From: Enhygromyxa salina
Lineage (GTDB): Bacteria > Myxococcota_A > Polyangia > Nannocystales > Nannocystaceae
Assembly: GCF_000737335.2 (NCBI RefSeq)
Contig: NZ_JMCC02000022.1
Location: 30,242-70,241, forward strand
Reading direction: 5' to 3'
DNA length: 40,000 nt
Made by a program: the position numbers and the translations under genes. Under the pieces are notes generated by a model. That model saw only the letters and a list, made by a program, of their open reading frames with translations. It was not told the DNA's origin and did not search any database. This document shows, one piece after another, positions 1 to 23,372 of the stretch; within the stretch, counting starts at the first letter, position 1; the number at the start of each line of letters is the position of its first letter.

Positions 1-13
1 ACAGTGGTATTCG

Positions 14-2827
14 GTGTCCGAGGGCCTCCCAACCCTTCGGGGCGCTCGGGTCCGTCCCCTTGCCCATCAACTCTACGCCGCGCGCCGCGTGCTCGAGGCC
101 CATTCTCCTCGCTTCGTCCTGGCTGACGAGGTCGGGCTAGGCAAGACCATCGAGACCGGGTTGGTCATTCAGGCGCTGCTCGCTGCCGACCCAGACTTGC
201 GTGTGCTGGTCGTCGCTCCTGGCAGTATGAGTCGGCAGTGGTTGTGTGAACTCTACTTGCGCTTTGGTGGGCGTGCATTTGTACATGTTCCCGGTGACGT
301 TGTCGGGGGCCCACCTGTGGCGGAACGCCGGCGACGGCTAGCTGCCCCGCGGCTCATCGTCTCGACGACGGCGCTACTTGTCGACGAGCCGTTCCGAAAC
401 GCGCTGGTGGATCTGCCCTGGGACCTCGTGGTCATCGACGAGGCTCACCAGATTTCACCGCAGCACTCCCTGTATCCGACGCTGCGGGAACTCTCAGCCC
501 GTAGCACTGGTTTCCTGGCGCTCTCAGCAACACCGTCCAAACGAGAGGCTTGCGGCCTCACGGGCTTGCTGGCCCTCGTGGCACCCGACGCATATGCGCT
601 GGACGACGGGGACGCGCTCGCGGCGAAGTTGAAGGATCGACGTGACATCTGGCGGGCGCTGACGTCCACCGAAGACATTCTGGGCGCGGCCCGAAACTCC
701 GAGGATGGAGCGCCCGACCAAGAGACCATCGAGTTCCTCGTCGATGACTGGAACGGCGTGCTGCCGGAAGAGCCAGAGGTCGCGCGGATGTTGAGTCGGG
801 CCCGAGACGGCGAGGTCGAGGCGCTGGACGAACTCGTCGCCTATGTCCAGGAGCACTATCGGATCGATCATCGTATCGTGCGCACGCGTCGCCGAACGCT
901 CGGCGTCCTGGGCACGCGCTTCGCTCGTCGGCAGTTGAAGTACCTCGAGTACGAGCCCTCTGCGCCCGAGATCCTGCTGGCCCAGCACATGGACAAGCTG
1001 GCCACACCGGAGGCCCAGACCGCAGCTCAGACTCTGCTTCGTATCTTGTTCTGGCGAGGGCTGTGTGCCACGGCCAAGACCTTCATCGAGTTGATCGAAG
1101 GGCGCGTTAGTGCACTTGAACAGGACGAGCATCACGACACCGATGCGTGCGCCCACGCGCTGACATCCGACCCCGGGCCAGGAGAACAAGAACAACTCGA
1201 GCATTTGCTTGTCATGCACACTCCCGCGCTACCCGAAGAGCGCGCGTGGCTGGAAGCGGCTCGCGGGCTCGCGCGGGAGTGGTTGGCGGCTGGATCGGAT
1301 GCCTGTGCGCGGCATCGCGACGTGATGAAGTGGCTCGGCGAACTTTTGACGACCTCACCGAACGCAAAGGTCCTCGTGTTTGCTCAGGACCGTTCTACCG
1401 TGTGCGAATTTGTCGAAGTGCTGCGAGCCCATCACCCGCAATGGGGCGCGGAGGCATTCCATCACGCATTGGATGATCGAGAACTCGAGGAAGCGGCGCA
1501 TCGTTTTCAGCGACTTTCGCGGCACAGGATCCTGGTCAGTGACGAACTCGGTGGCGAGGGACGGAATTTCCAGATGGCAGCGTGTGTGGTTCACCTGGAT
1601 ACACCGTTGTCGGTCGGCCGTGTTGAGCAGCGGATCGGCCGACTCGACAGGATGGGTCGCGAGCCGGATTGCCCAGTGACGTCCATCGTCGTTCGCGGGC
1701 CCAGCCGTGTGGAGCGGGCACTACAAGACATGCACGAGTCGGCATTTCGCGTCTTCACCGACTCGGTGGGCGGCCTGGAGTTCGTCCTGCCCCGGCTCCA
1801 AAACATGATGTACGCGGCGATCGGCAAGGGCGAGGACCTCGCCGAGATTACTCGGCAGATGAAGTCCGAAGTCGACTCGACCCTGGCCGAAGTCGACGAA
1901 GACTTTGAGTTGTCCTTGGATTCGTCGAGGAAGCAGCTCGAGCAGGCCCGGGAACTCGCCGAGATCTTTGAGGAGTCCGCCGACGACGGCGAGGAGCGCA
2001 AAGTGAGGCACTGGCTCGGAACGCTCGGAGTCGATCCTGGGCGTGACCGGCGCAAAATCAGGTTCAAGTGGACGGCAGAGACGCTGAGCGAGCCACTCTT
2101 GGGCTTCGACGCCGGCGATGGAAGCACACCTTTTGGCACTTTCGATCGCTCGGCCGCGCTCGCGGACGAGTCACTGCACTACTTCGCTCCGGGACACAAG
2201 CTCGTCGATGCCGCGCTAGCTGCTCTGTCCTCCAGCCGCCATGGCCGAGCGACGATGCTTCGCCGTGAGTTGGGCTCGCTACACCAAAACCAGATGTTCA
2301 TCGTGCTCTTGGGGACCAGCCGCTTGGACGAGAGCGACTGGGAGGGCGAGGGCATCCCCACCGGACTCCAGACCAAGGCACATCGCTTTTTGTGGCCCTC
2401 TTCCGAGATCACCTGTGTGCGAATCAGCGTCGACGTGGACGAGGAGCCCGAGATGGTGAGGGATCACGAGCTTCGCCAACGGCTGATTCGAATCTACGAG
2501 AGGGATACCGGCGATCGCGAGTTCACGGTCGATGAACTGCTCGAGGCCGTCTCGTCGCCGGGTCCATTGTGGACGGCCGTGCGAGGGGCGGTGTCCACCG
2601 GACTGGACGAGCTCAATCGAAATCTCGAGAGTCTCCGGGATGAGGCAGCCCAAGAGTTGGCCGAGATGATGAGCATGGAGATGGGCTATCTCCGCAACCA
2701 GATCCGCTTGGGGCTGCTCGACGCCCGTGACGCCCACCACGGACTGCAGCAGCGTGAGCGCTTGCTGCAGAGCGTCCGCCGGGCACGGATCGAACTCGAG
2801 AGCATCGCGCTGGTATTGGGCCGATAA
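14..2827 (+). CDS. SNF2/RapA-like SF2 helicase in the DpdE position of the Dpd-like island; the N-terminus may lie upstream of the window
   Basis: 937-aa ORF. Motif I ADEVGLGKT is at nt 134-148 and motif II VVIDEAHQ at nt 431-448. C-terminal motifs SDELGGEGRNFQ and VEQRIGRLDRMGR (QRxGRxxR) are present. The frame has no stop between nt 2 and the GTG at 14, so the true start may be outside the window. Stop TAA at 2825-2827 lies 1 nt before the next ATG. Confidence 0.85.
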   Translation: MSEGLPTLRGARVRPLAHQLYAARRVLEAHSPRFVLADEVGLGKTIETGLVIQALLAADPDLRVLVVAPGSMSRQWLCELYLRFGGRAFVHVPGDVVGGPPVAERRRRLAAPRLIVSTTALLVDEPFRNALVDLPWDLVVIDEAHQISPQHSLYPTLRELSARSTGFLALSATPSKREACGLTGLLALVAPDAYALDDGDALAAKLKDRRDIWRALTSTEDILGAARNSEDGAPDQETIEFLVDDWNGVLPEEPEVARMLSRARDGEVEALDELVAYVQEHYRIDHRIVRTRRRTLGVLGTRFARRQLKYLEYEPSAPEILLAQHMDKLATPEAQTAAQTLLRILFWRGLCATAKTFIELIEGRVSALEQDEHHDTDACAHALTSDPGPGEQEQLEHLLVMHTPALPEERAWLEAARGLAREWLAAGSDACARHRDVMKWLGELLTTSPNAKVLVFAQDRSTVCEFVEVLRAHHPQWGAEAFHHALDDRELEEAAHRFQRLSRHRILVSDELGGEGRNFQMAACVVHLDTPLSVGRVEQRIGRLDRMGREPDCPVTSIVVRGPSRVERALQDMHESAFRVFTDSVGGLEFVLPRLQNMMYAAIGKGEDLAEITRQMKSEVDSTLAEVDEDFELSLDSSRKQLEQARELAEIFEESADDGEERKVRHWLGTLGVDPGRDRRKIRFKWTAETLSEPLLGFDAGDGSTPFGTFDRSAALADESLHYFAPGHKLVDAALAALSSSRHGRATMLRRELGSLHQNQMFIVLLGTSRLDESDWEGEGIPTGLQTKAHRFLWPSSEITCVRISVDVDEEPEMVRDHELRQRLIRIYERDTGDREFTVDELLEAVSSPGPLWTAVRGAVSTGLDELNRNLESLRDEAAQELAEMMSMEMGYLRNQIRLGLLDARDAHHGLQQRERLLQSVRRARIELESIALVLGR

Positions 2828-2828
2828 C

Positions 2829-5414
2829 ATGCGCCGCGACTGGTACGTCTTCGACTCGTTGTCCGACCTGCTCGACGCTCTGCATCGTGGCTGGCATCGT
2901 GGACCTCCCGAGGATCCGTCCACCCAGTGGCTGGATGCCGCGGTCGAGCGTGCCTGGTTCGCTTTCGCAGCCAGTGACGGGGTCGATCGTCTTGTCTGGC
3001 TCCGGGAGCTGGCTCGTCTGCATGGGGGCACTCTCGAGCTTGCAGTGGGCTTGATTGATCCCGTTGACGCCAAGTTGCTCGCACGCTTCGGGCTGCGCTC
3101 GAGTGTAGTGCAAGAGCACCTCGTGTGGCGGATCATGGATGCGGCCGAGGCCGCGCTGCCGGCTCGGCTGCGCGACCAACTCGCCGTGAGCCTGCCGGTG
3201 GATCCGCACCCTCGACGTGTGTCCCTCGAGGAGCCGCCGGACGGGGTATTGCTGCGCTGCTCGTCGCACGAGCAGTACCGAACCACGACACAGAAATCCG
3301 CAGTGCGTGCGTTGTGCACGATGCCGGCCGGGAAGAGCCTTCTGATCACGATGCCCACGGGCAGCGGCAAGAGTCTGTTGTTTCAGCTGGGTGTTCGGTG
3401 GTGGAACGAGCTCGCCAGCGGTCGAGAGCGCGCCTGCGTGCTCGTCATCGTACCCACGGTCGCGCTCGCGCTTGCGCACGAACACACGTTGCGACGCATC
3501 GAAGGGCTCGAAGGTAGTCAGGCGCTGACCGGTGCCCTATCGGGTCAGGAGCGCGACGAGCTGTTCCTACGTTTTCGCCGTGGAGAAGTCCCGATTCTTC
3601 TTGCAGCGCCCGAGTCCGCGCTGGGCTCGGCCCGGTCGGATCTGCAACGCGTTGCCGCGAGCCTGAGCGACCGCCCACTGGCAGAGCGCGGGCGTCTGGC
3701 CGCAGTGTTCGTGGACGAGGCACACATCATCCACAGCTGGGGGCGGAGCTTTCGACCAGACTTTCAGCGCCTCCCCGGTCTGGTTGAGCGCTTGCGGGCG
3801 AGCAATCCCTCGCTGCGTACGGTGCTGCTCTCGGCGACCGTCGGTCGAGAGGCCAAGCAACTGCTCCGTCGACAGTATGCGAAGGATCTGGAGATGCTCG
3901 AGGTCGCTGCCCAAGCGCCGCGAACCGAGCTGGATTTGTGCATCCACCACTTCGACGACGCCGGGGAGCGCGATGGTGCGGTCATCGACCTCGTTGACCT
4001 GTTCCCGCGGCCGATGCTGCTCTACACGACCGAAGTGGACGATGCCGAGCGGATTCACGCTGCACTATCGGCCCGGGGCTATCAACGTCTCGCCTGCTTC
4101 ACCGGAAACACGGGTCCGCGCGAGCGCCAAGCCATCATCGACGGTTGGCAAGCGAGGAGCATCGACCTCGTCGTTGCAACCTCGGCTTTCGGCATGGGCA
4201 TCGACAAGTCCGATGTGCGCGCCGTCGTCCATGCGTGCCTGCCCGAGGACGCGGCTCGGCTGTACCAGGAGATCGGACGTGCCGGCCGCGATGGACACCA
4301 GGCCCTCGCGGTGGTGCTCTCGAGCCAACAAGACGAGGTGCTCGCCGTGCGCATGGGAACAGGGCAGGTGCTGTCGGTCGTCAAAGCCAAGGAGCGCTGG
4401 ATGTCGCTTCTGGAGCAGGCCCGACGCGACGGGCCGATCTCGGCGGAGACGTTCGAGGTCAGCCTCGACGCGGAGCTCGAGCGTCTGCCTCCGCGCACCG
4501 GTCAGCACCATATGAACTGGAACAGGGCGCTGCTCGTCCAGCTGCAGCGCTACGGGGCCTTGAAAGTGCTCGCCGTCGACGACACCCGCGACCGCTGGAC
4601 GCTGCGCATGCTCGAGCCCGGCCTGCTCGATAGCGACACCGCGGCGCAACTCGTCGAGCAATATCTCGCCGCTCGGAGCAAAGAAACCCGTGCCGCGCAT
4701 CGGCGGGTCGACGCGCTCCTGCAGCTCGTGCGGGCGACCCAACTCGTCGGCGACAACACGGATGCTGCCGAGGACGAAGTGGAGGTCGCCGAGGATCCGC
4801 TCTTGGACTATAGCTGCCTCATGCTTGCGCTGTTCGAGCAGGTCGAGGATTCGCTCGAGATTCAAGAGCCTTGCGGGCGATGCATGTGTTGTCGGAAATG
4901 GAAGCAACAGCCGCCTGGCCGTGTGCGCCACCAGGGGGGCACGGCGGTCTGGACCACGCCGACGGTCGGTGATGACCCCTGGGCCGGAGCACGCGTGGCG
5001 TTTGCTCGAGACCCGGAGTATCGCGATCTGAACAATGTGATTCGGGATTTGGTGCGGGTCGGCTTTCAGCAATTCATCGTGCCGGACGGACGAGCCATGG
5101 ACACCGCGCGCGTGCTGGCTGAGTACGCGGGACATCCAGGCCTGGTTCTGGAGGCTCAGCAGATATTGACGGACGCGTGGCGGGCGATGCCGATCGCAAC
5201 CGTGCTGTTCTTCGATCCCACGCTTGGAGAACGCGCGCGCACGATCCTCTACACGCGGACCCGCGATCACGTCCTGGCGACCCCACGCGTTGGGTTGCTG
5301 TTCGTTGCCCCGCACGATTTACAGCTTCAGGGCAAGCGGTTGAGCGCGATCGCTTCCGCCCACGGACCTATGGACATCGAAGATCTCGTCTATCATTCGG
5401 GAGCCCATTCATGA
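2829..5414 (+). CDS. RecQ-family-like DEAH helicase in the DpdF position
   Basis: Motif I MPTGSGKSLLFQL starts at nt 3351. Motif II and the RecQ signature FVDEAHIIHSWGRSFRPDF follow. Motifs V/VI read ATSAFGMGIDKSDVRAVVHACLPEDAARLYQEIGRAGRDG. A Cys cluster CGRCMCCRKW lies near the C-terminus. I chose ATG 2829 (MRRDWYVF...) over the track start 2727, which overlaps the upstream gene by 100 nt. Confidence 0.85.
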   Translation: MRRDWYVFDSLSDLLDALHRGWHRGPPEDPSTQWLDAAVERAWFAFAASDGVDRLVWLRELARLHGGTLELAVGLIDPVDAKLLARFGLRSSVVQEHLVWRIMDAAEAALPARLRDQLAVSLPVDPHPRRVSLEEPPDGVLLRCSSHEQYRTTTQKSAVRALCTMPAGKSLLITMPTGSGKSLLFQLGVRWWNELASGRERACVLVIVPTVALALAHEHTLRRIEGLEGSQALTGALSGQERDELFLRFRRGEVPILLAAPESALGSARSDLQRVAASLSDRPLAERGRLAAVFVDEAHIIHSWGRSFRPDFQRLPGLVERLRASNPSLRTVLLSATVGREAKQLLRRQYAKDLEMLEVAAQAPRTELDLCIHHFDDAGERDGAVIDLVDLFPRPMLLYTTEVDDAERIHAALSARGYQRLACFTGNTGPRERQAIIDGWQARSIDLVVATSAFGMGIDKSDVRAVVHACLPEDAARLYQEIGRAGRDGHQALAVVLSSQQDEVLAVRMGTGQVLSVVKAKERWMSLLEQARRDGPISAETFEVSLDAELERLPPRTGQHHMNWNRALLVQLQRYGALKVLAVDDTRDRWTLRMLEPGLLDSDTAAQLVEQYLAARSKETRAAHRRVDALLQLVRATQLVGDNTDAAEDEVEVAEDPLLDYSCLMLALFEQVEDSLEIQEPCGRCMCCRKWKQQPPGRVRHQGGTAVWTTPTVGDDPWAGARVAFARDPEYRDLNNVIRDLVRVGFQQFIVPDGRAMDTARVLAEYAGHPGLVLEAQQILTDAWRAMPIATVLFFDPTLGERARTILYTRTRDHVLATPRVGLLFVAPHDLQLQGKRLSAIASAHGPMDIEDLVYHSGAHS

Positions 5415-6313
5415 GCCTCCTGTCGGACACCCAAGGTCGCCCCGAACCCGTGAGGTCGCTGTTGCGGTTGCTCGACGCTCTGGGAGGGCGAGCGACGCGT
5501 GACGAGGTCGACACCTGGATGATGCCTGCATCATTCCGAAAGCACGGGGAGCGCAGCCTCTCGCAGGTGAGCCAGACGGTCGGCTGTGCGCGCAGTCTCG
5601 GCCTGGTCGAAGACGATGGGGATGCTCTCGTGCTCAGCGTGGACCCAGCGCCGAACGGCATGGAGGCGTTTTTGGACCTCGTCCACGCGCGACTGTGCGA
5701 TCCGCAAAACGAGGCGGACGACGTCTTGTTCAGGGCCTACGCCTGCGTGGTACTCGAGACGGAACGGACGGGCAACACCGACTGGTTGGCCCAGTCGAGC
5801 GCCGCGATCGCCACCTCCATCAACAGGATCCTCGCGCACGGCGAGAGCGGTGCCCAGCGTGTCTTCAACAATACCAAGGCCCCGGCATGGCGTGCGTGGA
5901 TGGTCGCGCTCGGCCTCGCCATCGAGGGCGGCAACACGCTACCGTATCTGTTTCCACAGCCAGCACAGCGCCTCATCCGGGAGTTGCCTGCCATCGCCGA
6001 CGCGCACGGGCGCGGGGTAGAGATCCCAGCTGCGACGTTCATGGCCGAGATGGGCCGGCGCATGCCTTATCTCGACGGTGGTCAGGTTTACGCGCGCGTC
6101 GCCGCGCAGTTCGCCGAGGTGCACAGTTGGCGTTTGCGGGCGGGCTGGGTAACGACCGTCGTCAGCGAGGCGCTGCGAGATCTTCATGACGAAGGCACCA
6201 TCGAGTTGGTCGCACGAGCCGATGCGGCGGACGCCCTGAGCCTGCATCGCGAGATCGGCAGTTCGCTGCGTTCCTTCGTCGGTGTCATCGTTCGAGATGA
6301 GGCAGACCAATGA
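5411..6313 (+). CDS. Hypothetical 300-aa protein in the DpdG position; the N-terminal region may be wHTH-like
   Basis: ATG 5411 overlaps the upstream stop (ATGA at 5411-5414), and its own stop overlaps the next start (ATGA at 6310-6313). I recognised no catalytic motif. The assignment rests on position only. Confidence 0.6.
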   Translation: MSLLSDTQGRPEPVRSLLRLLDALGGRATRDEVDTWMMPASFRKHGERSLSQVSQTVGCARSLGLVEDDGDALVLSVDPAPNGMEAFLDLVHARLCDPQNEADDVLFRAYACVVLETERTGNTDWLAQSSAAIATSINRILAHGESGAQRVFNNTKAPAWRAWMVALGLAIEGGNTLPYLFPQPAQRLIRELPAIADAHGRGVEIPAATFMAEMGRRMPYLDGGQVYARVAAQFAEVHSWRLRAGWVTTVVSEALRDLHDEGTIELVARADAADALSLHREIGSSLRSFVGVIVRDEADQ

Positions 6314-9300
6314 GCTTTCGCAACTACGCGTGCTGGAAAGTCGATGACGCGACAGCAATGCTCCGCACCGAGGCTCTCGAGAGCTCTCGGGCGGTGTTCA
6401 TGGCCGTCCACTCGCCTATCCGCGATTTTCAGGTCGAGGGCGTGCTGGCGGGACTCCTCGATGAACGCAGCGAGACGGGGCTGTTGGATGCGCTCACGCG
6501 CCCGGACCACCGTCACCTGTTTTGTGTGGTCCAGGGTGAGCCTGGCTCGGGCAAGTCACATCTCATCCGTTGGCTGCGCTTTTGCTGGGAGAAACAGCGC
6601 AAGCAAGACCTGGTCTTGATGGTCCCCCGCAGCAACGGGAGTCTCGAGGGCGCCCTTCGGCACATGAAAGAGCGGCTCCCGGACCGCTACCAACATCTGT
6701 TTGCGGGTCTCGGTCAGGTGCAGAACACCACCTTGCAGGGCCGCGCGCGCGACTTCCACAGCAAGTTGGCCAACAGCCTCAGCCCCAACTACTTCTCCGG
6801 GGAGGCACCTGAACATGCCGAGTGGGCAGAGAAAAATCAGCTGAGTCGCCTCATCGGCCACCACCAAGTGATCGAGCAGTGGTCGGCTCCCCGGCGGATA
6901 CTCGAGACCCTCTCTGGTGGCTCGGAGCGCAACTCCCGGGTCGAGTCGTTCACGCTGCGAGACGTCCACGAACTCGCGCTGCTGCTTCGCTCTGTGCGGG
7001 ATCGGACGATCGGCCCCAAAGCCCTGCAGGCGCGCCGAAAATTCGAGCTGGAGTCTGCACAACTTGGCCCGCTCTTGGACCAGAATCTGGACGGATCCGT
7101 CGACGCGGCAGCGGCCCTCGCGGTTGCGCCCATGCTCGTTCGCCTGCGGGAAGCCCTGGATGCACGCTTTAATGCCGTCGTCCAGGATCTGGTCGGGGTT
7201 GGCCGCGATGGTTTGGTGCGAGCCTTTCGCCAGTTGCGCAAGCATCTCGCCAAGAGTGGTCAGCGACTCGTCTTGCTGCTTGAAGACATCACCAGCTTTC
7301 AGGGCGTGGACAAGCAGTTGCTCGATGTGCTCGTCGCCAAGAGCGAGACCGAGGAACACGGCGGGGAGCTGTGTGATCTGCTCAGCGTGGTGGGCATCAC
7401 GACGGACTTCTTCGATCAATCGATGCGAAGCTACGGCAACCTGCGAGAGCGCGTCTCGCTGCATGTGTATCTGGGCGACGCAACGGCCGGCCAGGCAGCG
7501 CAGAGCCTCTCGCTCACGGACTCTAGTGGTCGCCAGCGCTTCGCTATCCACTACCTGCGAGCCGTGCGGGCGGGAATCGACACGATCGAGCGCTGGGAGC
7601 AGAGCGGTCACGGAAAGCCGACCAACGCCTGCGTGGCCTGTCCACACCGCGGTCCCTGCCATCGTGCATTCGGCAGCGAGGACGGAGTGGGCTTTTACCC
7701 GCTCTCGCCTCGCGCCATCGATCGCATCTTCGAGTCACTGCGCGACCCCGCGGGCACCATGAGCCTGCGAACGCCCCGGGGCATGGTCCAAAATGTATTG
7801 TCCCCGCTGCTGCTGCACCCCGAGCGGCTGGAGAGGGGCGAGTATCCCCCGGCGAACCTCGAGGGCACCTACTTGCCCAAAGATGAGGGCTATCTGCTCG
7901 GACAAGTCGAGCGGATCCCGGCGATGTTGGACGACCCCGCCGATAGCGAACGCATGCGTCGCTTCATCGCGTGGTGGTCGTCCAGGGATCCTGGGGCACA
8001 GACCAGGCGCGATGCCCAGGGGCGACTGCTGTTTGCGGAGATCGCCAAGGAAGCCTACGAGGCCTTCGATCTGTGCTGGCCGGGTGAGCCCGTCGAGACC
8101 GAAGGAGAGGAACCTGACACCCCGGCTTTGATCGCGTTCGAGTCGAACGAATCTGCGCGCGCAGATGAGGTTCCCGAAGCAGACGCCGCTCCGGTTCCCT
8201 CTCCACCAGCACTTCCAAAGTCCCCGCGGGCCAAGGATGACAAGGGCACGAGCGCACCGCACAAGGTCAGCCGCACGCAGATGGACAAGCTCCGCACGGA
8301 GCTCAAAGGTTGGTTCGAGGGAGGCAGGGTGAGCGACGACAAGAAGTGGTCGTTGCTGCTGATGGAGGTTCTCAACACGCTTCCGTGGCGCAGCCTCGAC
8401 GTGCCCCACTGGCTTCAGCACAGGTTGTTCACGGACTCGACGGTCATGCTCGAGGGCTCGCGCAAGGCTAGTGTGCGGCACTTCGTGATCCCCCGAGTAG
8501 ACTGGGTTCGAGAGGGGCTGGATGGCTGGCTGGCCCTGCGAACCCAAAGTGGGGGCGAGGTCGAGTACCACCGCAAGCGCGTGGCTCGGTTTCTTCGCAG
8601 GTTGAATGGACTCGTGCTCGCCCATGTCGAGAGCAAGAGTTTGGCGGCGTCCGAGGGCGGCGTGTGGAACCCAGCCGGGACTGCCGCGCAAGCCCTGTTG
8701 GCCCGGGCCTGGCTGCAGGGCCGACTGCCAGAGGATGCGTCTTTGGCCAAGCGCTGGGAGATGATCCTGGTTGAGGATCAGGGGGCGGCGCTCAGCGCCG
8801 CCAACCATACCCCTGGGTGGCAGGAAGTGATTCGCAAGGTCGGACACTACCTGGGTGTCTTTCGGCAGTTCGTACGGGACTGGGTCCAGCTGAGCCTCAC
8901 CCCCGAGAAGGGAGACGACGGAATCGTCGATGCTGGCGCCATCGCTCCCGCGCTGGTGGCCTTTGGCCAGCGGCTCGCTCCAGATCTACCGCCACTCGAG
9001 CCCGTCCTTCCCAAGCAGCTGACCGAGTGGGTCTCAATCGCGGACGTGGGGCGAACCGTCCGCAAGATCATGCCGCTGCTTGCTCATCACGAGTTCAATC
9101 GCGTCAAGAAGGACATCGAACTTCTCGAGTTCGCATGCGATCGCCGAAGTCTCCCGCAGTACTTCGTCGAGGTCGGCCAGACGATCGAGCAACTCCGGGC
9201 GATGGACAATCGAGCACCCCAGGCTCGGATCGAGGAGTGGCATCGCGTTCGGCGCTTGCTGACAGACAAGAACATGCTCGAGCCCAGCGAGGGCAGTGGA

Positions 9301-9609: not shown

Positions 9610-10319
9610 TGGCCGAGCCTGAGACCCTCTCACCCTTGCGCTCCTTGCAGGCGGCCGTGCAGGACGGCCGACTTGCGGCCGCGGTTCGCCGCCGAGAACA
9701 CGGCGCCGCTCTCGACAAGGCGTCGCGTGCCTTGGCGAGTTTCGGGGGGTCTGTTGATCGGATCGAGGAGCTGGTTCGCGTCGCGGCCACGGTCGTTACG
9801 CACATCGATGAAAACAGTCAGATCGTGCTGCGTAGCAAGCTCGACACGCTCGCGCAGAAGAGCCACACCCTCGTCGGCGAGATCACCACGGAGATCCTCG
9901 ACAATTCTTGGCGGCAGCTGGAAGAGATCGACGGCCTGACTAAAGACATCAGCATGCAACTGCAGCGAGCCTGGAACAGCCTGATCCAGGCCGAGTTCGC
10001 AACCCTCGCGCAACTCGGTGGTGCTTTGAAGATGATGAAGGCCGAGACCGAATTGGGTGAACGCATGCGAGTCATTGCCCATGACGCGTTAGCACTTGGA
10101 AGCCAGTTTCCCCCGAGCGAGACGGCACTGGAGGCACTGGCCAAGCACACTCAGGCCCGGAACGAGGTGCGCGACAGGTTATCGAAGTCCGGATCGGGGA
10201 TCAGCTCGTTTCTGCTCAAGGTCGCCGAAGGTCAGGCGACGCTGGCCGATTTGGATCAGGAGACGCTGGATTGGCTGCGCAAGCAGGGGGCCATGCAAGC
10301 GTTCGCGGTCCGCCTGTGA
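9606..10319 (+). CDS. Hypothetical 237-aa protein, predicted all-helical or coiled-coil, in the DpdI position
   Basis: Start is GTG 9606 or ATG 9609, overlapping the upstream TGA at 9607-9609. The composition is heptad-like and helical, with no recognisable motif. It is the last gene of the plus-strand operon, and its stop lies 8 nt from the stop of the convergent gene. Confidence 0.55.
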   Translation: MMAEPETLSPLRSLQAAVQDGRLAAAVRRREHGAALDKASRALASFGGSVDRIEELVRVAATVVTHIDENSQIVLRSKLDTLAQKSHTLVGEITTEILDNSWRQLEEIDGLTKDISMQLQRAWNSLIQAEFATLAQLGGALKMMKAETELGERMRVIAHDALALGSQFPPSETALEALAKHTQARNEVRDRLSKSGSGISSFLLKVAEGQATLADLDQETLDWLRKQGAMQAFAVRL

Positions 10320-10327
10320 GGGGCGGC

Positions 10328-16771: not shown

Positions 16772-19020
16772 CCGGCCCCCTCACTCAGGTAGCGCAGGAG
16801 GGTTTCCATGCGAGCTGTGTTGACGTCGACATGACCCTTGTCCAGGAACCAGCCAGCGGTCGGTGTGTCCCGCATCAGTCGGCGCATGGTCTGGCTCGTC
16901 CAGGCTTTCTTCCAGATCTTCACGCGCAACCGACTGGGATCGGCGCCGGACAGCAACTCGACCGTGCATTCGGGCCAGCGCGAAGGGTCCATGCGCAGGT
17001 CCGGGTCGTCGTCGGTGAGGATTAGGCCCAGGCTACCCGGTGAGATCTCGGCCTGGCGGCTCTCAGGCGGCACCAAAAAGTCCAGGATTGCGCCCCCACT
17101 CCGATTTTTCGCTTCACGAAGCTCGAGATTGGCGTAGCAGCGCAATCGCTCTCGGCGTTCCTCGGACGGGCGGGCCAGATCGATCAGCGCGCCGAGACGC
17201 TCCGCTCGACTTTGAAGTAACTCCTGGGCGAGCAGCACGTCGAGGTCGATGGCTTCGAGCGGGTGAAACTGCTCTTGAAAGCGAAACGGCGGCTTGCGCA
17301 GGCGCAAGAAATCGTGGCCCGACTGCGCGTTGTCGTCGAGTATCCACTGACAGAGGCTCTGCATCGCGCGGAGTCGAGCGATCGCATCCTGTTGCGTGGC
17401 TTCGACCCACTGAGGCTTGTCGCCGAGTTGTCGCATCACGTCGATGGACAGGCGTGCGGAGAAGGGCCGTGTGAAGGGCGGCCCTGGAAGATACGGGCTC
17501 TTCAATGGAGGTGTCGCCTCGGCCAGGGCTCGGCTTACCCGCGCGAGGTCGTAGGAGACCTTGGCCGGAAGCACGTACAGCTGCTCTATCACGCTGCGCA
17601 AGGCACTAGCCGGCAAGTGATGGGCCCCGCGATACTCAGGCTCGGGTGCGCGGACTTCCTCTGGTGGAAACAGGCGCACGAGATGAATGAGGCCCGAACG
17701 AATATCGCTGTCGTCGAGGTGAGTGGCGAGAGTGTCGCGGAGGTCGTTTGCCTCCGACGGTTCGTAGACGAAGATGTGCATGCGCAGGCCCTCCGTAGTA
17801 GGGAGACGCTGGTTGTGCTCGTGGAGCTCTTGCAGGACATCGATGAGGCCACGCAGCACGCGGGTGAGCGCCGGCAATTCATCTGTAGGCCGAGTCACTA
17901 CCTCGACCACCGGTGGCCTGGCCCGCTTGCCGCCTACAAGACAACCGATGGTCACAAGGTGAGCGGCGACCGGGTCCCGATCCACGACGAGGAAGATAGG
18001 CACGTCGATTTGTGGCGGCATCAACCAGGTGTGGTGTTCGGGTAGGCGGCACCACTGCCTCGAGAGCAACGCCTCAGCCCTGTTCTTGAGCAGCTTGCCT
18101 CGGGTGCGCAGCGTCCAGGTGTCATCGCCCAGGTGAGACGCGCGGGCGACAGCGCCGAGTGTTCGCAGACCATTACGATGAAGCGCGGCCTTGGACTGGT
18201 GGGAGAGTCCCGGTATTGCGGATATGTCCCAGTCTTCCCGAGGCCGATCGTCAGCGATGGCCTTGTCGCAATGCTGCAACCACTTACACTGCTCGCATTT
18301 GAAGTAGAGATGAAAGAAAGTCTGGTCTGACCCGCTGCCGATCTTTGTCTGGCTGATGGAACCGAGTTGGCGGCGAAAGAAGTCGCGCAATAGCTCCTCG
18401 TGGCTGCGGAGATCAAACAGACCTCTCTCCGCCTCCCATAGCGGGCCTCCGTCCGCGCCGATAGACCAGATGTTGGCCTGACGATGGATCGGCGGCTCAT
18501 TGATTCCCAGTGAAGCGAATACTCCGCGCAACATCAGTGCGTAGAAAGCGACCTGTGCGCGATGATACTGGGTCGGGCGCCGGGTGTGTTTAACGTCGAT
18601 AATTCTGAGGCACCGCTGCTTCCCCTCGCCCACCCACTCCATGAAATCCGGTAGGCCAGAGCGTATGGAGACGTGCTCAGGGAGTTGAAGATCGCGTCGC
18701 AAGGATGGAGTCTCATCGAGCTTGGCCTGGTAGATGAGCCTCGCTGGATGTTCTCCGCGCAAGAATGCGGCGGTCAGCCCCGGGGGCACGTGAAGACTCC
18801 CACCGTTCGGGCGCAGGATGGACTCGCCCCGCTCGCGCAGTCGTCGGAGTACGTCTTCCTCGAAACGGACGCCCTCCTCCCTACGGATGCTGCGGTCGTC
18901 GACCTCGTGCACGGGGACGGCGTCCCTGACCTCACGCGGAAGGGTCGCGTAGATCAACCTGCGCTCACAACGATACTGAAACCAATCCTTGATGTCGCTC
19001 GCGCGGATTTCCATTTTCAT
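16768..19020 (-). CDS. PD-(D/E)xK nuclease, RecB/Cas4-like, resembling the TM0106 family (750 aa); candidate effector nuclease
   Basis: The N-terminal third carries GLPDFMEW...CLRIIDVKHTRRPTQYHRAQVAFYALML (D...DxK...QxxxY; IIDVK at nt 18589-18603), followed by the Cys cluster CEQCKWLQHC. Its stop overlaps the start of the 2147-aa gene (ATGA at 16768-16771). It is the first gene of the minus-strand operon. Confidence 0.65.
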   Translation of the reverse strand: MKMEIRASDIKDWFQYRCERRLIYATLPREVRDAVPVHEVDDRSIRREEGVRFEEDVLRRLRERGESILRPNGGSLHVPPGLTAAFLRGEHPARLIYQAKLDETPSLRRDLQLPEHVSIRSGLPDFMEWVGEGKQRCLRIIDVKHTRRPTQYHRAQVAFYALMLRGVFASLGINEPPIHRQANIWSIGADGGPLWEAERGLFDLRSHEELLRDFFRRQLGSISQTKIGSGSDQTFFHLYFKCEQCKWLQHCDKAIADDRPREDWDISAIPGLSHQSKAALHRNGLRTLGAVARASHLGDDTWTLRTRGKLLKNRAEALLSRQWCRLPEHHTWLMPPQIDVPIFLVVDRDPVAAHLVTIGCLVGGKRARPPVVEVVTRPTDELPALTRVLRGLIDVLQELHEHNQRLPTTEGLRMHIFVYEPSEANDLRDTLATHLDDSDIRSGLIHLVRLFPPEEVRAPEPEYRGAHHLPASALRSVIEQLYVLPAKVSYDLARVSRALAEATPPLKSPYLPGPPFTRPFSARLSIDVMRQLGDKPQWVEATQQDAIARLRAMQSLCQWILDDNAQSGHDFLRLRKPPFRFQEQFHPLEAIDLDVLLAQELLQSRAERLGALIDLARPSEERRERLRCYANLELREAKNRSGGAILDFLVPPESRQAEISPGSLGLILTDDDPDLRMDPSRWPECTVELLSGADPSRLRVKIWKKAWTSQTMRRLMRDTPTAGWFLDKGHVDVNTARMETLLRYLSEGAG

Positions 19021-19203
19021 CGTGGCAGTTCACGCCTCTGCGCGAAGTTTCGCCAATAATACGAGTTCTTTCTGAGTGTGTCTCCTGGGTTCACAACCGT
19101 TAGCAACAGATTGACGCACGTTTGCCATGACGCTGGACCAAACGGCCCACTCGTCAGGGCTCGACGCGTCCGGATACAGCCCAGTTTCTCAACCACTTGA
19201 TCT
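19021..19203. promoter_or_regulatory. Divergent intergenic control region between the nuclease/helicase operon (-) and the folE2-dpdA-dpdB operon (+)
   Basis: This 183-nt non-coding gap is the only sizeable one in the island and is noticeably AT-richer than its surroundings (for example ccaataatacgagttctttctgagtgtgt). It contains TTGACG at about 19110 and two gttcac words. I could not place convincing -35/-10 pairs. Confidence 0.5.
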
Positions 19204-20025
19204 ATGGTACGAAACCCGGCTATGCAGGACGTCCAGGGCCTACCAGACGACCGAGAAATCCCGATCGACCGCGTCGGCGTCGCGGGTCTCAACCACCCGA
19301 TCGTCGTCCTCGACCGCCGCTCGGAGAAGCAGCGGACCGTGGGAGCGTTCACGATGTCCGTTTCGCTGCCCCGGGAGCAGAAGGGCACGCACATGAGCCG
19401 GTTCGTGGAGGTCCTCAACGACCACCACGGAGAAGTGACGATGCGCACGGTTCCAAAGATCTTGCGAGATCTCCAGGATCGGCTTGGCGCATCCTCCGCA
19501 CAGATTGAAGTCACGTTCCCCTACTTCCTCGAGCGCGCGGCGCCGGTGAGCGGGGCGACGGCGCTCATGGACTACTCGTGCGCGTTCATCGGTGAGCTTC
19601 GCGAGGACCACGATGATTTCGTCCTCCGCGTGCGGGTGCCAGTGACCAGCCTATGCCCTTGCAGCAAGGCTATCTCGGAGCGAGGTGCTCACAATCAACG
19701 GGGCTACATCACGATGTCCGTTCGGACGAACACCGACAGTTCGGGAGATCCGCAGCTCGTGTGGATCGAGGAGCTGATTCAGGTCGCCGAGCAGTCTGCG
19801 TCGGCTCCCGTATATCCGTTGCTCAAGCGTCCGGACGAGGCCCACGTGACCGTGCAAGCGTACGACAATCCAGTCTTCGTCGAGGACATGGTTCGCAACG
19901 TCGCTCGGCGACTGCAGGACGACCCACGAGTTTACTGGTTCGAGGTCCACGCCGAAAACCACGAGAGCATCCACAACCACTCGGCCTTCGCTCAGGTCAC
20001 GTGGTCTCGCACCGAGAATCAATGA
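19204..20025 (+). CDS. folE2: GTP cyclohydrolase IB (FolE2/GCYH-IB), the first step of 7-deazaguanine (preQ0) and folate synthesis
   Basis: N-terminus reads DVQGLPDDREIPIDRVGV. The metal-site motif is SLCPCSKAISERGAHNQRGY (CPCSK at nt 19654-19668). The length of about 270 aa is typical. An alternative start is ATG 19222. The stop overlaps the next start (ATGA at 20022-20025). Confidence 0.85.
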   Translation: MVRNPAMQDVQGLPDDREIPIDRVGVAGLNHPIVVLDRRSEKQRTVGAFTMSVSLPREQKGTHMSRFVEVLNDHHGEVTMRTVPKILRDLQDRLGASSAQIEVTFPYFLERAAPVSGATALMDYSCAFIGELREDHDDFVLRVRVPVTSLCPCSKAISERGAHNQRGYITMSVRTNTDSSGDPQLVWIEELIQVAEQSASAPVYPLLKRPDEAHVTVQAYDNPVFVEDMVRNVARRLQDDPRVYWFEVHAENHESIHNHSAFAQVTWSRTENQ

Positions 20026-20960
20026 CTGTCCATCTCGTCGCCAGCTGCACGGACCGAAAGCGTTCGAAGGTGCCACCTGAGCTGCGGCTCCGCGAACTCG
20101 CTGGCGGCTCAGTGAACGAACGCGTGCGCGGGTGGCTGACGACGTTGAGCAACTCGGCGACACCCGCTCTGCCAGCGCGCGAACTCTACGGCGGCGAGCA
20201 CTGGAAGCTCATCCTCGAACTCGAGAGCGAGTTGCGCGAGACTCGGGGAAATATCGAACTCTCCGTCGCCTCGGCCGGCTATGGCTTGGTGTCGGCCGAC
20301 GCGCACCTCAAGCCCTACTCCGCCACGTTCGCTGGACGCCAACCCGACTCGGTGGCTCAGAACCAGGACGATCGGTCTTCCACGTGGTGGGACGGGCTTT
20401 GCGCCGGTGGAGAATCTCCAAATTCTCTGCAAACTCTGATGAGCGGGGCCGAAGGTCTCGTCGTGATCGCATCTGCCAAGTACCTTCGGGCCATGCTGCC
20501 GGATCTCCTGCTCGCACGCGCCACACTGCCGGACCCTGGCAACCTGGTGGTCTTCGCCGGATCCAAGGTGGACGAACTGGAGAAGTCACTCATCCGGGTT
20601 GATGCGCGCGTCCAAGTCGCCCTCAAAGACGTGGGTGCGGACCGTCTGCGCGGTACCAAGCAAGGTCTCGCAGCCCGAACCGCGAAAGAGTTGTTGTGCC
20701 AGACCAAGACCTGGCCACCAACGGCCGCCGTGCTCAGTGAGGCGTACGAACGCCTCGTCGCTGGCGTCGCCCCACCCGAGGCGTTAGATCGTGAGCGCCA
20801 CGAGGATGACGACGTCTCAGCGTTCATTGCCAAGGCGCTGGACGAGAACCCGCGCGCTGGCTGGACTAACCTGCTACGCACCTGGCGAGCCCAAGGCCAG
20901 GCTTGCGAGCAATCACGCTTCCGTCGTCTCCACGGCGAAGTCAAGGCGCGGAGGTCCTGA
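20022..20960 (+). CDS. Hypothetical 312-aa protein embedded in the modification operon; the N-terminal pattern resembles the DUF6884 type
   Basis: Translationally coupled to folE2 (ATGA), with its stop 2 nt before the dpdA-like GTG. The pattern HLVASCTDRKR...ARELYGGEHW...SVASAGYGLVSADAHLKPYSATF recalls, from memory, the DUF6884 consensus (C-S-x-x-K, LY, SA-x-x-GL, PY). This is unverified. The C-terminal third is helical and basic. Confidence 0.55.
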   Translation: MTVHLVASCTDRKRSKVPPELRLRELAGGSVNERVRGWLTTLSNSATPALPARELYGGEHWKLILELESELRETRGNIELSVASAGYGLVSADAHLKPYSATFAGRQPDSVAQNQDDRSSTWWDGLCAGGESPNSLQTLMSGAEGLVVIASAKYLRAMLPDLLLARATLPDPGNLVVFAGSKVDELEKSLIRVDARVQVALKDVGADRLRGTKQGLAARTAKELLCQTKTWPPTAAVLSEAYERLVAGVAPPEALDRERHEDDDVSAFIAKALDENPRAGWTNLLRTWRAQGQACEQSRFRRLHGEVKARRS

Positions 20961-20962
20961 CC

Positions 20963-22243
20963 GTGCACTACTTCCTGCCAGACAGCCAAGACCTGGTCGA
21001 CCCGAGCTTCGACTTCGAAAAAGAGATCCGCAGTCCCGACCGTGTACGCCACCGCGACGATCGCTATGCCCACGAGGTGTTTGGCTCCCGGGCGTTCGAC
21101 GGCATCCTCGTGTCCAAGGGCATCGTGGACTCGAATGGCGGCACTGGCCGCTACACGGGTCCGCAGCGGCGCCGCTTCGATCGTGATGGCGTCAAGCGCT
21201 TCTTCCGGGCGCAAGGCCACGGTTGGGGCAAGCTGCGCTTCATGGGTGACTGCGGCGCGTTTACCTATGTGAAGGACGAGGTCCCGCCCTACACGGTCGA
21301 CGAGGTCATCGATTTCTACGTCCGGGGCAAGTTCGATCTCGGGGTTTCGGTCGACCACATCATCCTCAGCTACGACCCAGACTGGGACGCGTTCGGCAAT
21401 GCTTCGGTGCCACCGGAGGTGCTCGAGCGGCAGCGGATCACGTTCGAACTCGCGCGGGAGTTCATCAAGAAGGCTAAGAAAGCTGGTGGTTTCACACCTT
21501 TGGGTGTCGCCCAGGGTTGGAGCCCATCCTCGTACGCGCACGCGGTCAAGCAGCTGCAGAAGATGGGCTACAAGTACATTGCGATCGGCGGCGTGGTACC
21601 GCTCAAGACTCACAAGCTGATCCACGTGCTCGATCAGATCAACGCGATACGCAACCGCGGCGTGAAGCTCCACCTCTTGGGCGTGACGCGCCTCGAGAAG
21701 ATCGCAGACTTCCGCTCGTACGGAGTCGCCAGCTTCGACAGCACGTCGCCGCTGCGTCGCGCGTGGCTGGACAACAAGGTCAATTATTTCACGCCTGATC
21801 GCTCCTACACGGCGGTTCGGGTGCCCCAGGTCGACGGCAACGTGCGTCTGCAAAAGCGCATTCGAGCGGGCGAGGTCAAGCAAGAGCACGCGCTCAAGGC
21901 CGAGGCCAAGTGCCTCAAGTACCTCGCGGAACTCGATGCTGGCAAACGAAGCGCAGCGTCTGTGGTCAAGGCTCTGACGGAGTACGAGCGCATTCACGAT
22001 CCGGGCGGCGACCGCTCGGAGCCGTACCGCGAGGTGCTCACCGATCAGCCCTGGAAGGCCTGTAAGTGTGAGGTGTGCATGCGGCTCGGACATCACGTGA
22101 TCATGTTTCGAGGCGCCGAGCGCAACCGCCGACGTGGTTTCCACAACGTGGCGGTGTTCTATCAGCAGCTACTGCAGGAACTTGCGCGACCCAAGCGTCG
22201 TAACCCCGCGCGCGAGCCCGAGCAACAACTCCTGAGTGTCTAG
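20963..22243 (+). CDS. dpdA: DpdA-like DNA-guanine transglycosylase (TGT superfamily)
   Basis: N-terminus (M)HYFLPDSQDLVDPSFDF when started at GTG 20963. The TIM-barrel-like core carries MGDCGAFTY, GVSVDHII, AIGGVVPL, HLLGV and SFDSTSP. A TGT-type zinc motif CKCEVC...H lies at nt 22061-22078. The length of about 426 aa fits. The genomic context is folE2 upstream and a DGQHR protein downstream. Confidence 0.8.
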   Translation: MHYFLPDSQDLVDPSFDFEKEIRSPDRVRHRDDRYAHEVFGSRAFDGILVSKGIVDSNGGTGRYTGPQRRRFDRDGVKRFFRAQGHGWGKLRFMGDCGAFTYVKDEVPPYTVDEVIDFYVRGKFDLGVSVDHIILSYDPDWDAFGNASVPPEVLERQRITFELAREFIKKAKKAGGFTPLGVAQGWSPSSYAHAVKQLQKMGYKYIAIGGVVPLKTHKLIHVLDQINAIRNRGVKLHLLGVTRLEKIADFRSYGVASFDSTSPLRRAWLDNKVNYFTPDRSYTAVRVPQVDGNVRLQKRIRAGEVKQEHALKAEAKCLKYLAELDAGKRSAASVVKALTEYERIHDPGGDRSEPYREVLTDQPWKACKCEVCMRLGHHVIMFRGAERNRRRGFHNVAVFYQQLLQELARPKRRNPAREPEQQLLSV

Positions 22244-22247
22244 GTCC

Positions 22248-23372
22248 ATGCCCAAGTCCCGTTCAGTGATCAAGGTCCCGGCGATGGAGATCCATCAATC
22301 GCCGGGACGCAAACTCTACACCTTCGCGATCGACGGCAAGCACGTCTACGACTTTGCGGACGTCTCCCGCATCCGGCGCAACGAGAAGACCGAACTCGAA
22401 GGCTACCAACGGCCTGAAGTCATCGCGCACATCCAGGAGATCAAAGAGTATATCGAGAGTGACTCCCCGATGCTTCCCAACGGCGTGGTGGTCGCCTTCG
22501 ATTCGCGGGTGAAGTTCAAGCGCGTCAAGACCACAGAACTCGACATGGGCACCGATACTGCGATGGGTGTGCTCGAGATTCCCGTTGGAGAGGATCCCAA
22601 GCGCGGACGCGTGGGGTTCATTGTTGATGGGCAACAACGGCTGGCTGCCATTCGGGGGGCGAAGATCAAAAAGTTCATGGTGCTGGTGTCCGCGTTCATT
22701 ACTGATGATCTGCGCCAACAAACGGAGCAGTTCATCCTCGTCAACTCGACCAAACCGCTGCCCAAGGGGTTGATCTACGAGTTGATCCCGCACACCGATG
22801 CAAGGTTGCCGACCGCGCTGCACCGACGCCGACTCGCTGCATTTTTGCTCGAGCGGCTCAACCATGAACAAGGGTCGCCGCTCCACAAGATGATCCGCAC
22901 CCCGACGGCGCCGGACGGGGTGATCAAGGATAATTCGATGCTCAAGATGCTGGGCAACAGCCTGAGCGACGGGGTGCTCTACGAGTTTCGGGATCGCAAT
23001 GAGCTGACCGACGAGTCCGTGGCCGAGATGCTTGCGCTGCTTCAACGGTTCTGGGGCGCAGTGAGCGAGACTTTTCCTGACGCGTGGGGAAAGAAGCCGC
23101 GTGAGTCGAGGTTGATGCACGGTGCGGGGATCGTGAGCATCGGCAACTTGATGGATCACATCGCCTCGCAGCGAACCCGCCGCTCGACGATTCCCTCGCA
23201 ACAGTACTTTCGGAAGCACCTCTCGCTGGTTGCACCCGAGTGCGCATGGACAGATGGGGACTGGCGCTTCGACGACGACGACGTGCGGAGCTGGAATCAG
23301 ATCCAGAATACGCGGCAGGATGTCGAGATGCTGACGGACTTCTTGCAGCGGGCGTACGACGCCTCGGCGTAG
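22248..23372 (+). CDS. dpdB: DGQHR-domain (ParB/DndB-like) protein, DpdB-like
   Basis: The DGQHR-type motif FIVDGQQRLAAI is present (GAT GGG CAA CAA CGG at nt 22626-22640). It lies immediately downstream of the dpdA-like gene. Start ATG 22248 is 4 nt after the dpdA stop, and GTG 22236 is an alternative. Confidence 0.8.
   Translation: MPKSRSVIKVPAMEIHQSPGRKLYTFAIDGKHVYDFADVSRIRRNEKTELEGYQRPEVIAHIQEIKEYIESDSPMLPNGVVVAFDSRVKFKRVKTTELDMGTDTAMGVLEIPVGEDPKRGRVGFIVDGQQRLAAIRGAKIKKFMVLVSAFITDDLRQQTEQFILVNSTKPLPKGLIYELIPHTDARLPTALHRRRLAAFLLERLNHEQGSPLHKMIRTPTAPDGVIKDNSMLKMLGNSLSDGVLYEFRDRNELTDESVAEMLALLQRFWGAVSETFPDAWGKKPRESRLMHGAGIVSIGNLMDHIASQRTRRSTIPSQQYFRKHLSLVAPECAWTDGDWRFDDDDVRSWNQIQNTRQDVEMLTDFLQRAYDASA

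Follow-up and report, generated by a model that had tools for sequence, protein, structure and literature searches.

In Salmonella, DpdA and the ATPase DpdB replace guanine in DNA by preQ0 (7-cyano-7-deazaguanine), DpdC converts the resulting nucleoside (dPreQ0) to dADG (2'-deoxy-7-amido-7-deazaguanosine), and DpdD to DpdK provide restriction, for which individual roles have not been assigned (PMC10164549). The gene content of Dpd systems varies considerably: 146 dpd gene compositions have been reported, with dpdD and dpdI being the least conserved genes (PMC11888242). In addition, there are many uncharacterised Dpd-like classes, and a C-terminal cysteine cluster that canonical Dpd systems have lost persists in Dpd-like systems that branch more deeply (Bell et al., bioRxiv 10.1101/2025.09.15.676423). 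Here, we describe a locus in a stretch of 40,000 nucleotides from Enhygromyxa salina (contig NZ_JMCC02000022.1, positions 30,242 to 70,241; the whole stretch is called the window in the following). The region up to position 23372 is very probably an intact Dpd (7-deazaguanine) restriction-modification island that belongs to a divergent, conserved subtype. A first-pass annotation made from the sequence alone had already proposed a Dpd-type island, and the profile assignments of the gene set confirm this. DNA modification and restriction are activities that homology would assign to the locus.

Gene content of the island

Open reading frame (ORF) listing and translation revealed eleven contiguous intact genes, which extend from the left window edge to position 23372. 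They are arranged in three tightly coupled units, on the plus strand (1-10319), on the minus strand (10328-19020), and again on the plus strand (19204-23372). The genes of the first unit are separated by 1 nt or overlap by 4 nt, the two genes of the second unit overlap by 4 nt, and the overlaps in the third unit are 4, 7, and 8 nt long. The first two units converge with their stop codons 8 bp apart (10317-10330), while the second and third diverge from a 183 bp intergenic region (19021..19203, without strand), so that the convergent and divergent layout of three coupled units noted at first sight holds.

The genes were assigned by hidden Markov models (HMMs) from NCBIfam, which have curated equivalog cutoffs, PADLOC, and Pfam. 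DpdA (542 bits, cutoff 200), DpdB (468 bits, cutoff 300), DpdG (88 bits, cutoff 80), and FolE2 (287 bits, cutoff 215) score above the NCBIfam cutoffs. DpdE (338 bits, cutoff 500), DpdF (467 bits, cutoff 550), DpdH (260 bits, cutoff 450), and DpdJ (329 bits, cutoff 800) also have the respective Dpd family as best NCBIfam match but remain below the cutoff. For DpdE, DpdF, DpdG, DpdH, and DpdJ, the Dpd family is the top match in both NCBIfam and PADLOC, and for some genes the alternative Dpd models of PADLOC fit far better (4.8e-143 for DpdF and 7e-149 for DpdH). Apart from DpdG, the restriction proteins are most appropriately regarded as Dpd homologs and not as curated equivalogs.

The modification arm is formed by the third unit. 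It starts with folE2 (19204..20025, plus strand), encoding a GTP cyclohydrolase IB of 273 residues (NF010200; Pfam GCHY-1 7e-95), and continues with dpdC (20022..20960, plus strand), dpdA (20954..22243, plus strand), encoding a DNA-guanine transglycosylase of 429 residues (NF041059), and dpdB (22236..23372, plus strand), encoding a DGQHR/ParB-like ATPase of 378 residues (NF041060; PADLOC 8e-149), the start of which overlaps the dpdA stop. The scores of FolE2, DpdA, and DpdB support the identities initially given to these proteins. In contrast, dpdC had been reported as absent and its product as an unknown protein of 312 residues. DpdC is not missing because this DUF6884-type protein matches a PADLOC DpdC model over its full length (PDLC02817, 2.5e-65). 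Nine further PADLOC DpdC models match as well, the Pfam DUF6884 match is weak (0.0025), and NCBIfam gave no match. By BLASTP, the protein is similar to the product of the ORF that comes before dpdA in the canonical cluster of Enterobacter cloacae pPOL9A (2.6e-15). Of the genes for preQ0 supply, folE2 is the only one in the window; queC, queD, and queE are not present there, as had been noted before, whereas most loci of the subtype carry them. These genes may be located in another part of the genome.

DpdA aligns with the structure of the S. Montevideo enzyme (7UI4) with an E-value of 2e-119. Once the tag offset of 20 residues is taken into account, the catalytic Asp95, Asp130, and Asp256 of that enzyme are matched by D99, D134, and D262, and its Phe99 and Leu236 by F103 and L242. 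The base-contacting His181 is replaced by Gln187 (21512-21514). Glutamine is found at this position in 29 of 30 DpdAs from subtype loci, in which the three catalytic aspartates are invariant. Thus, Gln187 could be a signature of the subtype or reflect a difference in specificity. We take glutamine to be the residue that bacterial tRNA-guanine transglycosylases (TGTs) have at the equivalent position.

The restriction operon, dpdE-F-G-H-I, is encoded by the first unit. DpdE (1..2827, plus strand; NF041062, PADLOC 6e-64) is an SNF2/BrxHII-like helicase. The 5' end of its gene is cut by the window edge because bases 1-13 do not contain an in-frame stop (bases 2-13 read Q-W-Y-S), because the alignments begin only at position 141 of the 1048 in the NCBIfam profile and at position 152 of the 1091 in the PADLOC profile, and because a 57% identical homolog of 1086 residues in a metagenomic locus (L006) extends upstream through the same 'QW[YF]..SEGLPTLRG' stretch. 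About 150 dpdE codons are therefore predicted beyond the edge, and the start at position 14 and the length of 937 residues given at first are artefacts. DpdF (2829..5414, plus strand; PDLC02862) is a RecQ-like superfamily 2 (SF2) helicase of 861 residues, which is 32% identical to canonical DpdF (E 6e-65). The 300-residue product of the next gene (5411..6313, plus strand) had been left as an unknown in the dpdG position and is assigned to DpdG by an alignment over the full length (NF041064). DpdH (6310..9609, plus strand; PDLC02884) is a BrxC-like P-loop ATPase of 1099 residues with weak Pfam AAA_16/NACHT matches. The last protein of the operon, of 237 residues (9606..10319, plus strand), does not have a direct NCBIfam or PADLOC match on its own. 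A syntenic family of about 232 residues is present at the dpdI position in 50 related loci, 18 of 25 family members match the NCBIfam DpdI model (NF041066, best 3.7e-9), and the profile of the family matches canonical DpdI in hhalign with a probability of 84% (E 7.7e-6). This protein had been described as a helical member of the dpdE-J set; the position stands, and by way of its family the protein is now recognised as a divergent DpdI. Profile similarity of the five-gene operon to DpdE-I is thus direct for DpdE, DpdF, DpdG, and DpdH, and indirect for DpdI.

As canonical reference for the system of S. enterica serovar Montevideo (dpdA-K) we used the PGAP-annotated cluster of pPOL9A (L087), in which dpdC?-A-B are convergent on dpdE-F-G-H-I-J-K-D. 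The sizes of the latter proteins are 1035 (E), 826 (F), 291 (G), 1068 (H), 282 (I), 1478 (J), 176 (K), and 727 (D) residues. The order and sizes of DpdE to DpdJ mirror those of the canonical cluster, in agreement with the initial comparison, and a modification operon apart from the restriction genes is also common to both. Identities to the pPOL9A proteins are 47% for DpdA, 49% for DpdB, and 26% for DpdC. However, the restriction proteins are only 24-34% identical to their canonical counterparts, and this over partial lengths. In contrast to the canonical systems, the window island includes folE2, has glutamine at the His181 position of DpdA, encodes a 750-residue iron-sulphur (Fe-S) nuclease instead of DpdD and the phospholipase D-like (PLD) nuclease DpdK, and has its dpdJ together with this nuclease in a unit of their own, which is convergent on the dpdE-I operon. 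In addition, the window DpdJ comprises 2147 residues compared to 1478, with an added N-terminal superfamily 1B (SF1B) helicase and a retained C-terminal four-cysteine cluster.

The Fe-S nuclease and the long DpdJ

The nuclease gene (16768..19020, minus strand) is coupled to the long dpdJ and encodes a Cas4/DNA2-like PD-(D/E)xK protein of 750 residues. That such a nuclease takes the place of DpdK had been proposed before and agrees with the searches: DpdK/PLD models do not match any window protein, and tblastn with canonical DpdK yielded nothing in the window and 85 related loci. DpdD was also not found in the window, of which the left edge is open, or in the 85 related loci; in L006, it is absent from the 4.6 kb upstream of dpdE. 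Across 22 homologs, D125, D142, K144, Q156, and Y160 are invariant, as are C18, C242, C245, and C251. On sequence grounds, this is the pattern of the Cas4/AddB/DNA2-type Fe-S PD-(D/E)xK nucleases, and an Fe-S cluster is predicted from the arrangement of the cysteines. The family is conserved over its full length and has 332 matches in a 90%-clustered database; in a 50%-clustered library, the E-value is at most 1e-3 for 326 representatives and at most 1e-30 for 76. The nuclease itself matches Cas4 and TM0106 RecB-like models weakly. None of the 22 family members matched a PADLOC Dpd model, with only weak matches to Cas4, and the family profile did not match any PDB sequence. An AlphaFold (AF2) model built from the 22 sequences has a predicted local distance difference test score (pLDDT) of 85.4 and a predicted template modelling score (pTM) of 0.75. 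A Foldseek search of the PDB with this model has mouse Dna2 as first but weak match (E 2e-3, TM ~0.16), and further partial matches, to RNase H-like nucleases and, among Upf1-family helicases, to the barrel region; these structural matches are suggestive only. The nuclease was also considered as a divergent DpdD or DpdK and both were rejected, with an hhalign probability of 0.1 each and no BLAST, PADLOC, or NCBIfam match. We infer that the nuclease stands in for DpdK and DpdD.

The long dpdJ (10328..16771, minus strand) encodes a double helicase of 2147 residues. It consists of a DNA2/Upf1-like SF1B domain (residues 49-470; 15362..16627, minus strand), a YprA-like SF2 core (residues 857-1400 with the DEIH motif at 1065-1068; 12572..14203, minus strand; Pfam DEAD/Helicase_C), and a C-terminal cluster of four cysteines (C1955, C2108, C2112, and C2115; 10427..10909, minus strand). 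The fusion of an SF1 helicase to the giant helicase had been noticed at first reading and is substantiated by Pfam AAA_11/AAA_12 at the N-terminus. The best match of the SF1B domain among solved structures is the helicase domain of mouse DNA2 (1.9e-13). The SF2 core matches DpdJ and YprA, and it is 29% identical to residues 75-679 of canonical DpdJ (E 5e-48). The NCBIfam DpdJ model aligns only from residue 708 onwards. Residues 1-2140, in contrast, align to the 2112 positions of PADLOC model PDLC02895 with 1716 bits. Because this model aligns end to end, the SF1-fused form of DpdJ was already modelled in 2023 (PADLOC 2.0).

Conservation was assessed in 56 full-length homologs of 2036-2150 residues. 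In both helicases, the Walker A/B and arginine-finger motifs are conserved at 95% or more, including the SF1B Walker A (G70-T77) and D197/E198, and the SF2 core motifs are invariant. Three cysteine clusters are conserved, the C-terminal one at 98-100%. The Pfam DUF1998 model does not match the long DpdJ, and the C-terminal cluster can be interpreted as a DUF1998-like zinc site. The N-terminus was also compared to DpdD as a candidate, to which it does not show similarity. With the catalytic, Fe-S, and helicase motifs being invariant, the nuclease and both DpdJ helicases look active.

The pair resembles a split DNA2, although we would not file it as a member of the DNA2 family. Like DNA2, Cas4, and AddB, the nuclease combines the PD-(D/E)xK motif with one N-terminal and three C-terminal cysteines, and, as in DNA2, it is partnered with an SF1B (AAA_11/AAA_12) helicase. 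Unlike in DNA2, nuclease and helicase are encoded by separate, overlapping genes, and the SF1B helicase is fused to a second helicase, of SF2, with no role in replication implied. In addition, the nuclease has about 490 extra residues, which in the model form RNase H-like and beta-barrel-like parts. Fusions of nuclease and helicase do exist elsewhere. P0178, a protein of 3312 residues from a metagenomic Dpd locus (L091, 7686-17624), contains nuclease, SF1 helicase, and DpdJ in a single polypeptide; its gene directly follows queC-folE2-(324 aa)-dpdB-dpdA-dpdB and is convergent with the genes of DpdI and DpdH. P0191 (1256 residues) combines a nuclease-like N-terminus with an SF1 helicase 32% identical to DpdJ residues 49-460, and is found in a Tn7-like, non-Dpd context (L088-L090, gene 10001-13771). 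Supported by these fusions and by the invariant catalytic residues, nuclease and DpdJ probably form a physical and functional unit. As a side observation, P0191 belongs to the cargo of a Tn7-like element (TnsA/B/C/D/E), where it is encoded beside unknown proteins of 475 and 307 residues and an Mrr_cat protein. This cargo could represent a defence system in its own right that makes use of the same nuclease-helicase module.

Distribution of the subtype and alternative explanations

A scan of one genome per species resulted in 75 nuclease loci, 62 of which contain a near-complete nuclease; 53 of these could be tested for the neighbouring gene, having at least 6.4 kb of downstream sequence. A full-length long DpdJ directly follows the nuclease in 52 of the 53, and in related loci DpdI and DpdH then converge on it. 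Myxococcota and many Alphaproteobacteria are among the taxa, as are Chromatiaceae, Bryobacteraceae, Vulcanimicrobiota, and Lentisphaeria. Because the pair recurs so regularly, the island is an ordinary member of a conserved subtype and not a one-off rearrangement. The first-pass annotation had suggested an undescribed subtype with a rearranged architecture. The divergence from the canonical island stands, whereas a singular locus does not, given the recurrence of the pair and the existence of PADLOC models.

Where DpdA and DpdB are encoded upstream of the nuclease, the gene order is typically dpdC-dpdB-dpdA-dpdB-queE-queD-queC(-yhhQ)-nuclease-dpdJ. The subtype loci of Alphaproteobacteria and other phyla (e.g. 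L002 on the chromosome of Rhizobium sp. N324, and the plasmid loci L086 and L092) share with the window the overlapping or closely spaced nuclease and long-DpdJ genes, the convergent DpdI-DpdH-DpdG-DpdF, and the linkage of dpdC, dpdA, and dpdB. They differ from it in that they usually have two DpdB paralogs around DpdA together with queE-queD-queC and sometimes yhhQ, that the genes upstream of the nuclease are often all on one strand, and that some are without DpdE. The window layout with a single DpdB and a modification operon divergent from the nuclease is common to a metagenome-assembled Myxococcales genome (L011), which contains the closest genome locus (nuclease 73% identical) and has the same layout plus queC. 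The two plasmid loci, on pSR-1 of Skermanella rosea (L086) and in Caulobacter sp. S6 (L092), are flanked by insertion sequence (IS) elements and an integrase. These versions are without DpdE, and the PGAP annotation gives names to DpdA, DpdB, and the Que enzymes alone.

Among the described systems, the locus fits the Dpd-like description of Bell et al. (bioRxiv 10.1101/2025.09.15.676423) by its features, which were compared instead of tree positions. Like BRIGADE and the deeper-branching Dpd-like systems of that study, it combines 7-deazaguanine genes with a YprA-family helicase; there too, the PLD nuclease is sometimes replaced by a PD-(D/E)xK nuclease, a DNA2-like helicase/nuclease association is found, and the DUF1998 cysteine cluster is kept in Dpd-like branches. 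However, BRIGADE has been described only in halophilic archaea and has ARMADA-like YprA homologs, usually two, whereas the window system is bacterial and has a single DpdJ-type YprA homolog and the full DpdE-I set. Similarities to DISARM and BREX are limited to single components: DpdJ is YprA/DrmA-like and DpdE is BrxHII/DrmD-like according to PADLOC matches, and DpdH and DpdI have been described as BrxC-like (Bell et al., bioRxiv 10.1101/2025.09.15.676423). In contrast to these systems, the self mark would be a 7-deazaguanine base exchange and not methylation, and the island does not contain a methyltransferase, PglZ, or DrmC.

Several observations weigh against an intact Dpd island. DpdE, DpdF, DpdH, and DpdJ stay below the equivalog cutoffs, RefSeq labels the restriction genes of the subtype as hypothetical, and the queC/D/E genes that most subtype loci carry are not in the window. 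The exchange of His181 for glutamine means that an identical base specificity of DpdA would not be guaranteed. For the nuclease, the structural match to Dna2 is weak, and the last 490 residues do not have a secure assignment. One alternative would be two unrelated systems next to each other, a modification-only dpdCAB/folE2 cassette and an independent helicase-nuclease defence similar to DpdE-J. Modification-only dpd islands have been reported (PMC11888242), and L001, of which the nuclease is 91% identical to that of the window, does not contain dpdCAB within 10 kb upstream of the nuclease. The two arms also differ in their affinities. When window positions 19204-23372 were compared with L002, L011, L013, L039, and L087, DpdA and DpdB were 47-49% identical to the canonical enterobacterial type and 36-40% to alphaproteobacterial members of the subtype. 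DpdJ behaves in the opposite way, with 41-44% identity over the full length to the subtype and 29% over part of the length to the canonical protein. Because of these opposite affinities, it could be that modification and restriction modules have been exchanged between systems. However, of 49 genome loci from different phyla, 25 have DpdA and DpdB in the upstream flank of the nuclease, often in the same direction, and in others the two are found on the far side of the F-I operon, as in the plasmid locus of Caulobacter sp. S6, where dpdA/B lie beyond that operon. Furthermore, dpdB-dpdA-dpdB are directly upstream of the fused nuclease-DpdJ gene in L091, and DpdF, DpdG, DpdH, DpdI, and DpdJ have specific Dpd families as best matches. 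Two unrelated systems are therefore unlikely.

A decaying or inactive remnant, to which the missing DpdK, DpdD, and queC/D/E and the single DpdB would point, is very unlikely. The nearest genome relative, L011, does keep queC beside folE2. However, the eleven ORFs have the full length of their families, the cut at the window edge aside, the catalytic motifs are intact, and the translational coupling is kept. DpdK and DpdD are missing from every locus of the subtype, which makes their absence a trait of the subtype and not a sign of decay, and the canonical Salmonella system also draws on housekeeping preQ0 synthesis (PMC10164549). It is even harder to imagine that the TGT-like enzyme acts on tRNA, with the island being a tRNA modification cluster of the queuosine/archaeosine type. 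DpdA does belong to the TGT superfamily (Pfam TGT 5.8e-7), and the glutamine at its His181 position would fit a tRNA enzyme, but it groups apart from the tRNA enzymes, with 542 bits for the DpdA equivalog compared to at most 25 bits for the tRNA TGT models. It also has its strong match to a solved DNA-guanine transglycosylase (7UI4), and its gene is in an operon with dpdB and dpdC and linked to restriction genes. An intact Dpd island of a divergent subtype accounts best for these observations.

Dpd as a system and its variable gene content were known before, and PADLOC 2.0 (2023) includes models for the long DpdJ and the matching DpdH and DpdC. Within our partial reach of the literature, we provisionally found no paper on the 750-residue nuclease family as a Dpd component or on its split-DNA2 tie to DpdJ. 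It is conceivable, although we hold this view only tentatively, that the nuclease and SF1B::YprA module defines a formally undescribed Dpd class, with a processive DNA2/AddAB-like effector in place of DpdK and DpdD and a DpdA with a TGT-like glutamine at the base-recognition position, which is common in Alphaproteobacteria and Myxococcota and was likely missed by surveys with Salmonella queries. In such an effector swap, the presumed effector DpdK, together with DpdD, is exchanged for a different nuclease, and the fusion of this nuclease with DpdJ that some genomes encode suggests that DpdJ is the effector-carrying platform. The subtype therefore offers a natural comparison for dissecting the mechanism of Dpd restriction. 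The NCBIfam models, and PADLOC in the case of the nuclease, under-annotate the subtype, the restriction genes of which are named "hypothetical", "AAA domain-containing", or "helicase" in RefSeq. As a result, Dpd restriction arms are probably undercounted in Alphaproteobacteria and Myxococcota.

Proposed mode of action and island borders

By homology with Salmonella, the system might work as follows. FolE2 would feed GTP into the preQ0 pathway and boost its first step, and the QueD, QueE, and QueC steps would be supplied by genes outside the window. DpdA and DpdB would then exchange guanine for preQ0 at specific DNA sites, and DpdC would turn dPreQ0 into dADG. The nuclease and the SF1B domain could constitute a split DNA2-like nuclease-helicase docked on the YprA-like DpdJ, and this module would be the effector that degrades DNA without the 7-deazaguanine mark, replacing DpdK and DpdD. 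DpdE, DpdF, DpdG, DpdH, and DpdI are supposed to act as in other Dpd systems.

At the convergent junction of the dpdE-I and nuclease-dpdJ units (10317-10330), a terminator-like site was not found. An equally tiny gap or a gene overlap is seen at this junction in relatives, for example at 18559-18579 of L002. Such a small gap suggests read-through antisense transcription or coupled regulation. The divergent intergenic region (19021..19203) contains one sigma-70-like match on the minus strand (19084-19056; 0.1 expected from shuffles), which is a match to the consensus only. The island has a GC content of about 0.63, which increases to 0.69-0.73 (about 0.72) directly after dpdB, beside pfkA. The right flank is ordinary chromosome, encoding pfkA, a CotH-domain protein, a tail-collar-domain protein, a beta-lactamase-family hydrolase, and an alpha-2-macroglobulin. 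Because of the GC rise and this flank, we place the right border near 23.4 kb; the left one is beyond the window. Neither a tRNA gene nor a terminator marks the junctions of the island.

A metagenome scan with DpdE had L006 as sole true syntenic relative, while the dpd genes of L007 are laid out differently. L003, L004, L008, and a short contig of 5.2 kb (L005) were rejected as relatives since tblastn did not reveal any other Dpd gene, and they appear to hold DpdE-like SNF2 genes in a different setting. About 3 kb upstream of its dpdE homolog, L006 encodes a radical-SAM protein of 328 residues (472-1458, minus strand) beside a sigma-54-type activator; its CxxxCxxC region resembles that of prokaryotic viperins, as judged by eye only. 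In L001, a contig of a JGI metagenome and the closest relative, an SNF2/DUF3670 helicase of 881 residues and a protein of 326 residues are encoded upstream of the nuclease (1-10000), where the window has folE2-dpdC-dpdA-dpdB. To the right of the island, the window contains an ORF of 715 residues (25648-27795) without a Pfam match and with a GC content of about 0.73. It carries tandem 36- and 48-bp repeats at 26148-26528, which encode proline-rich 'DKTAFVAPPPPD'-type units.

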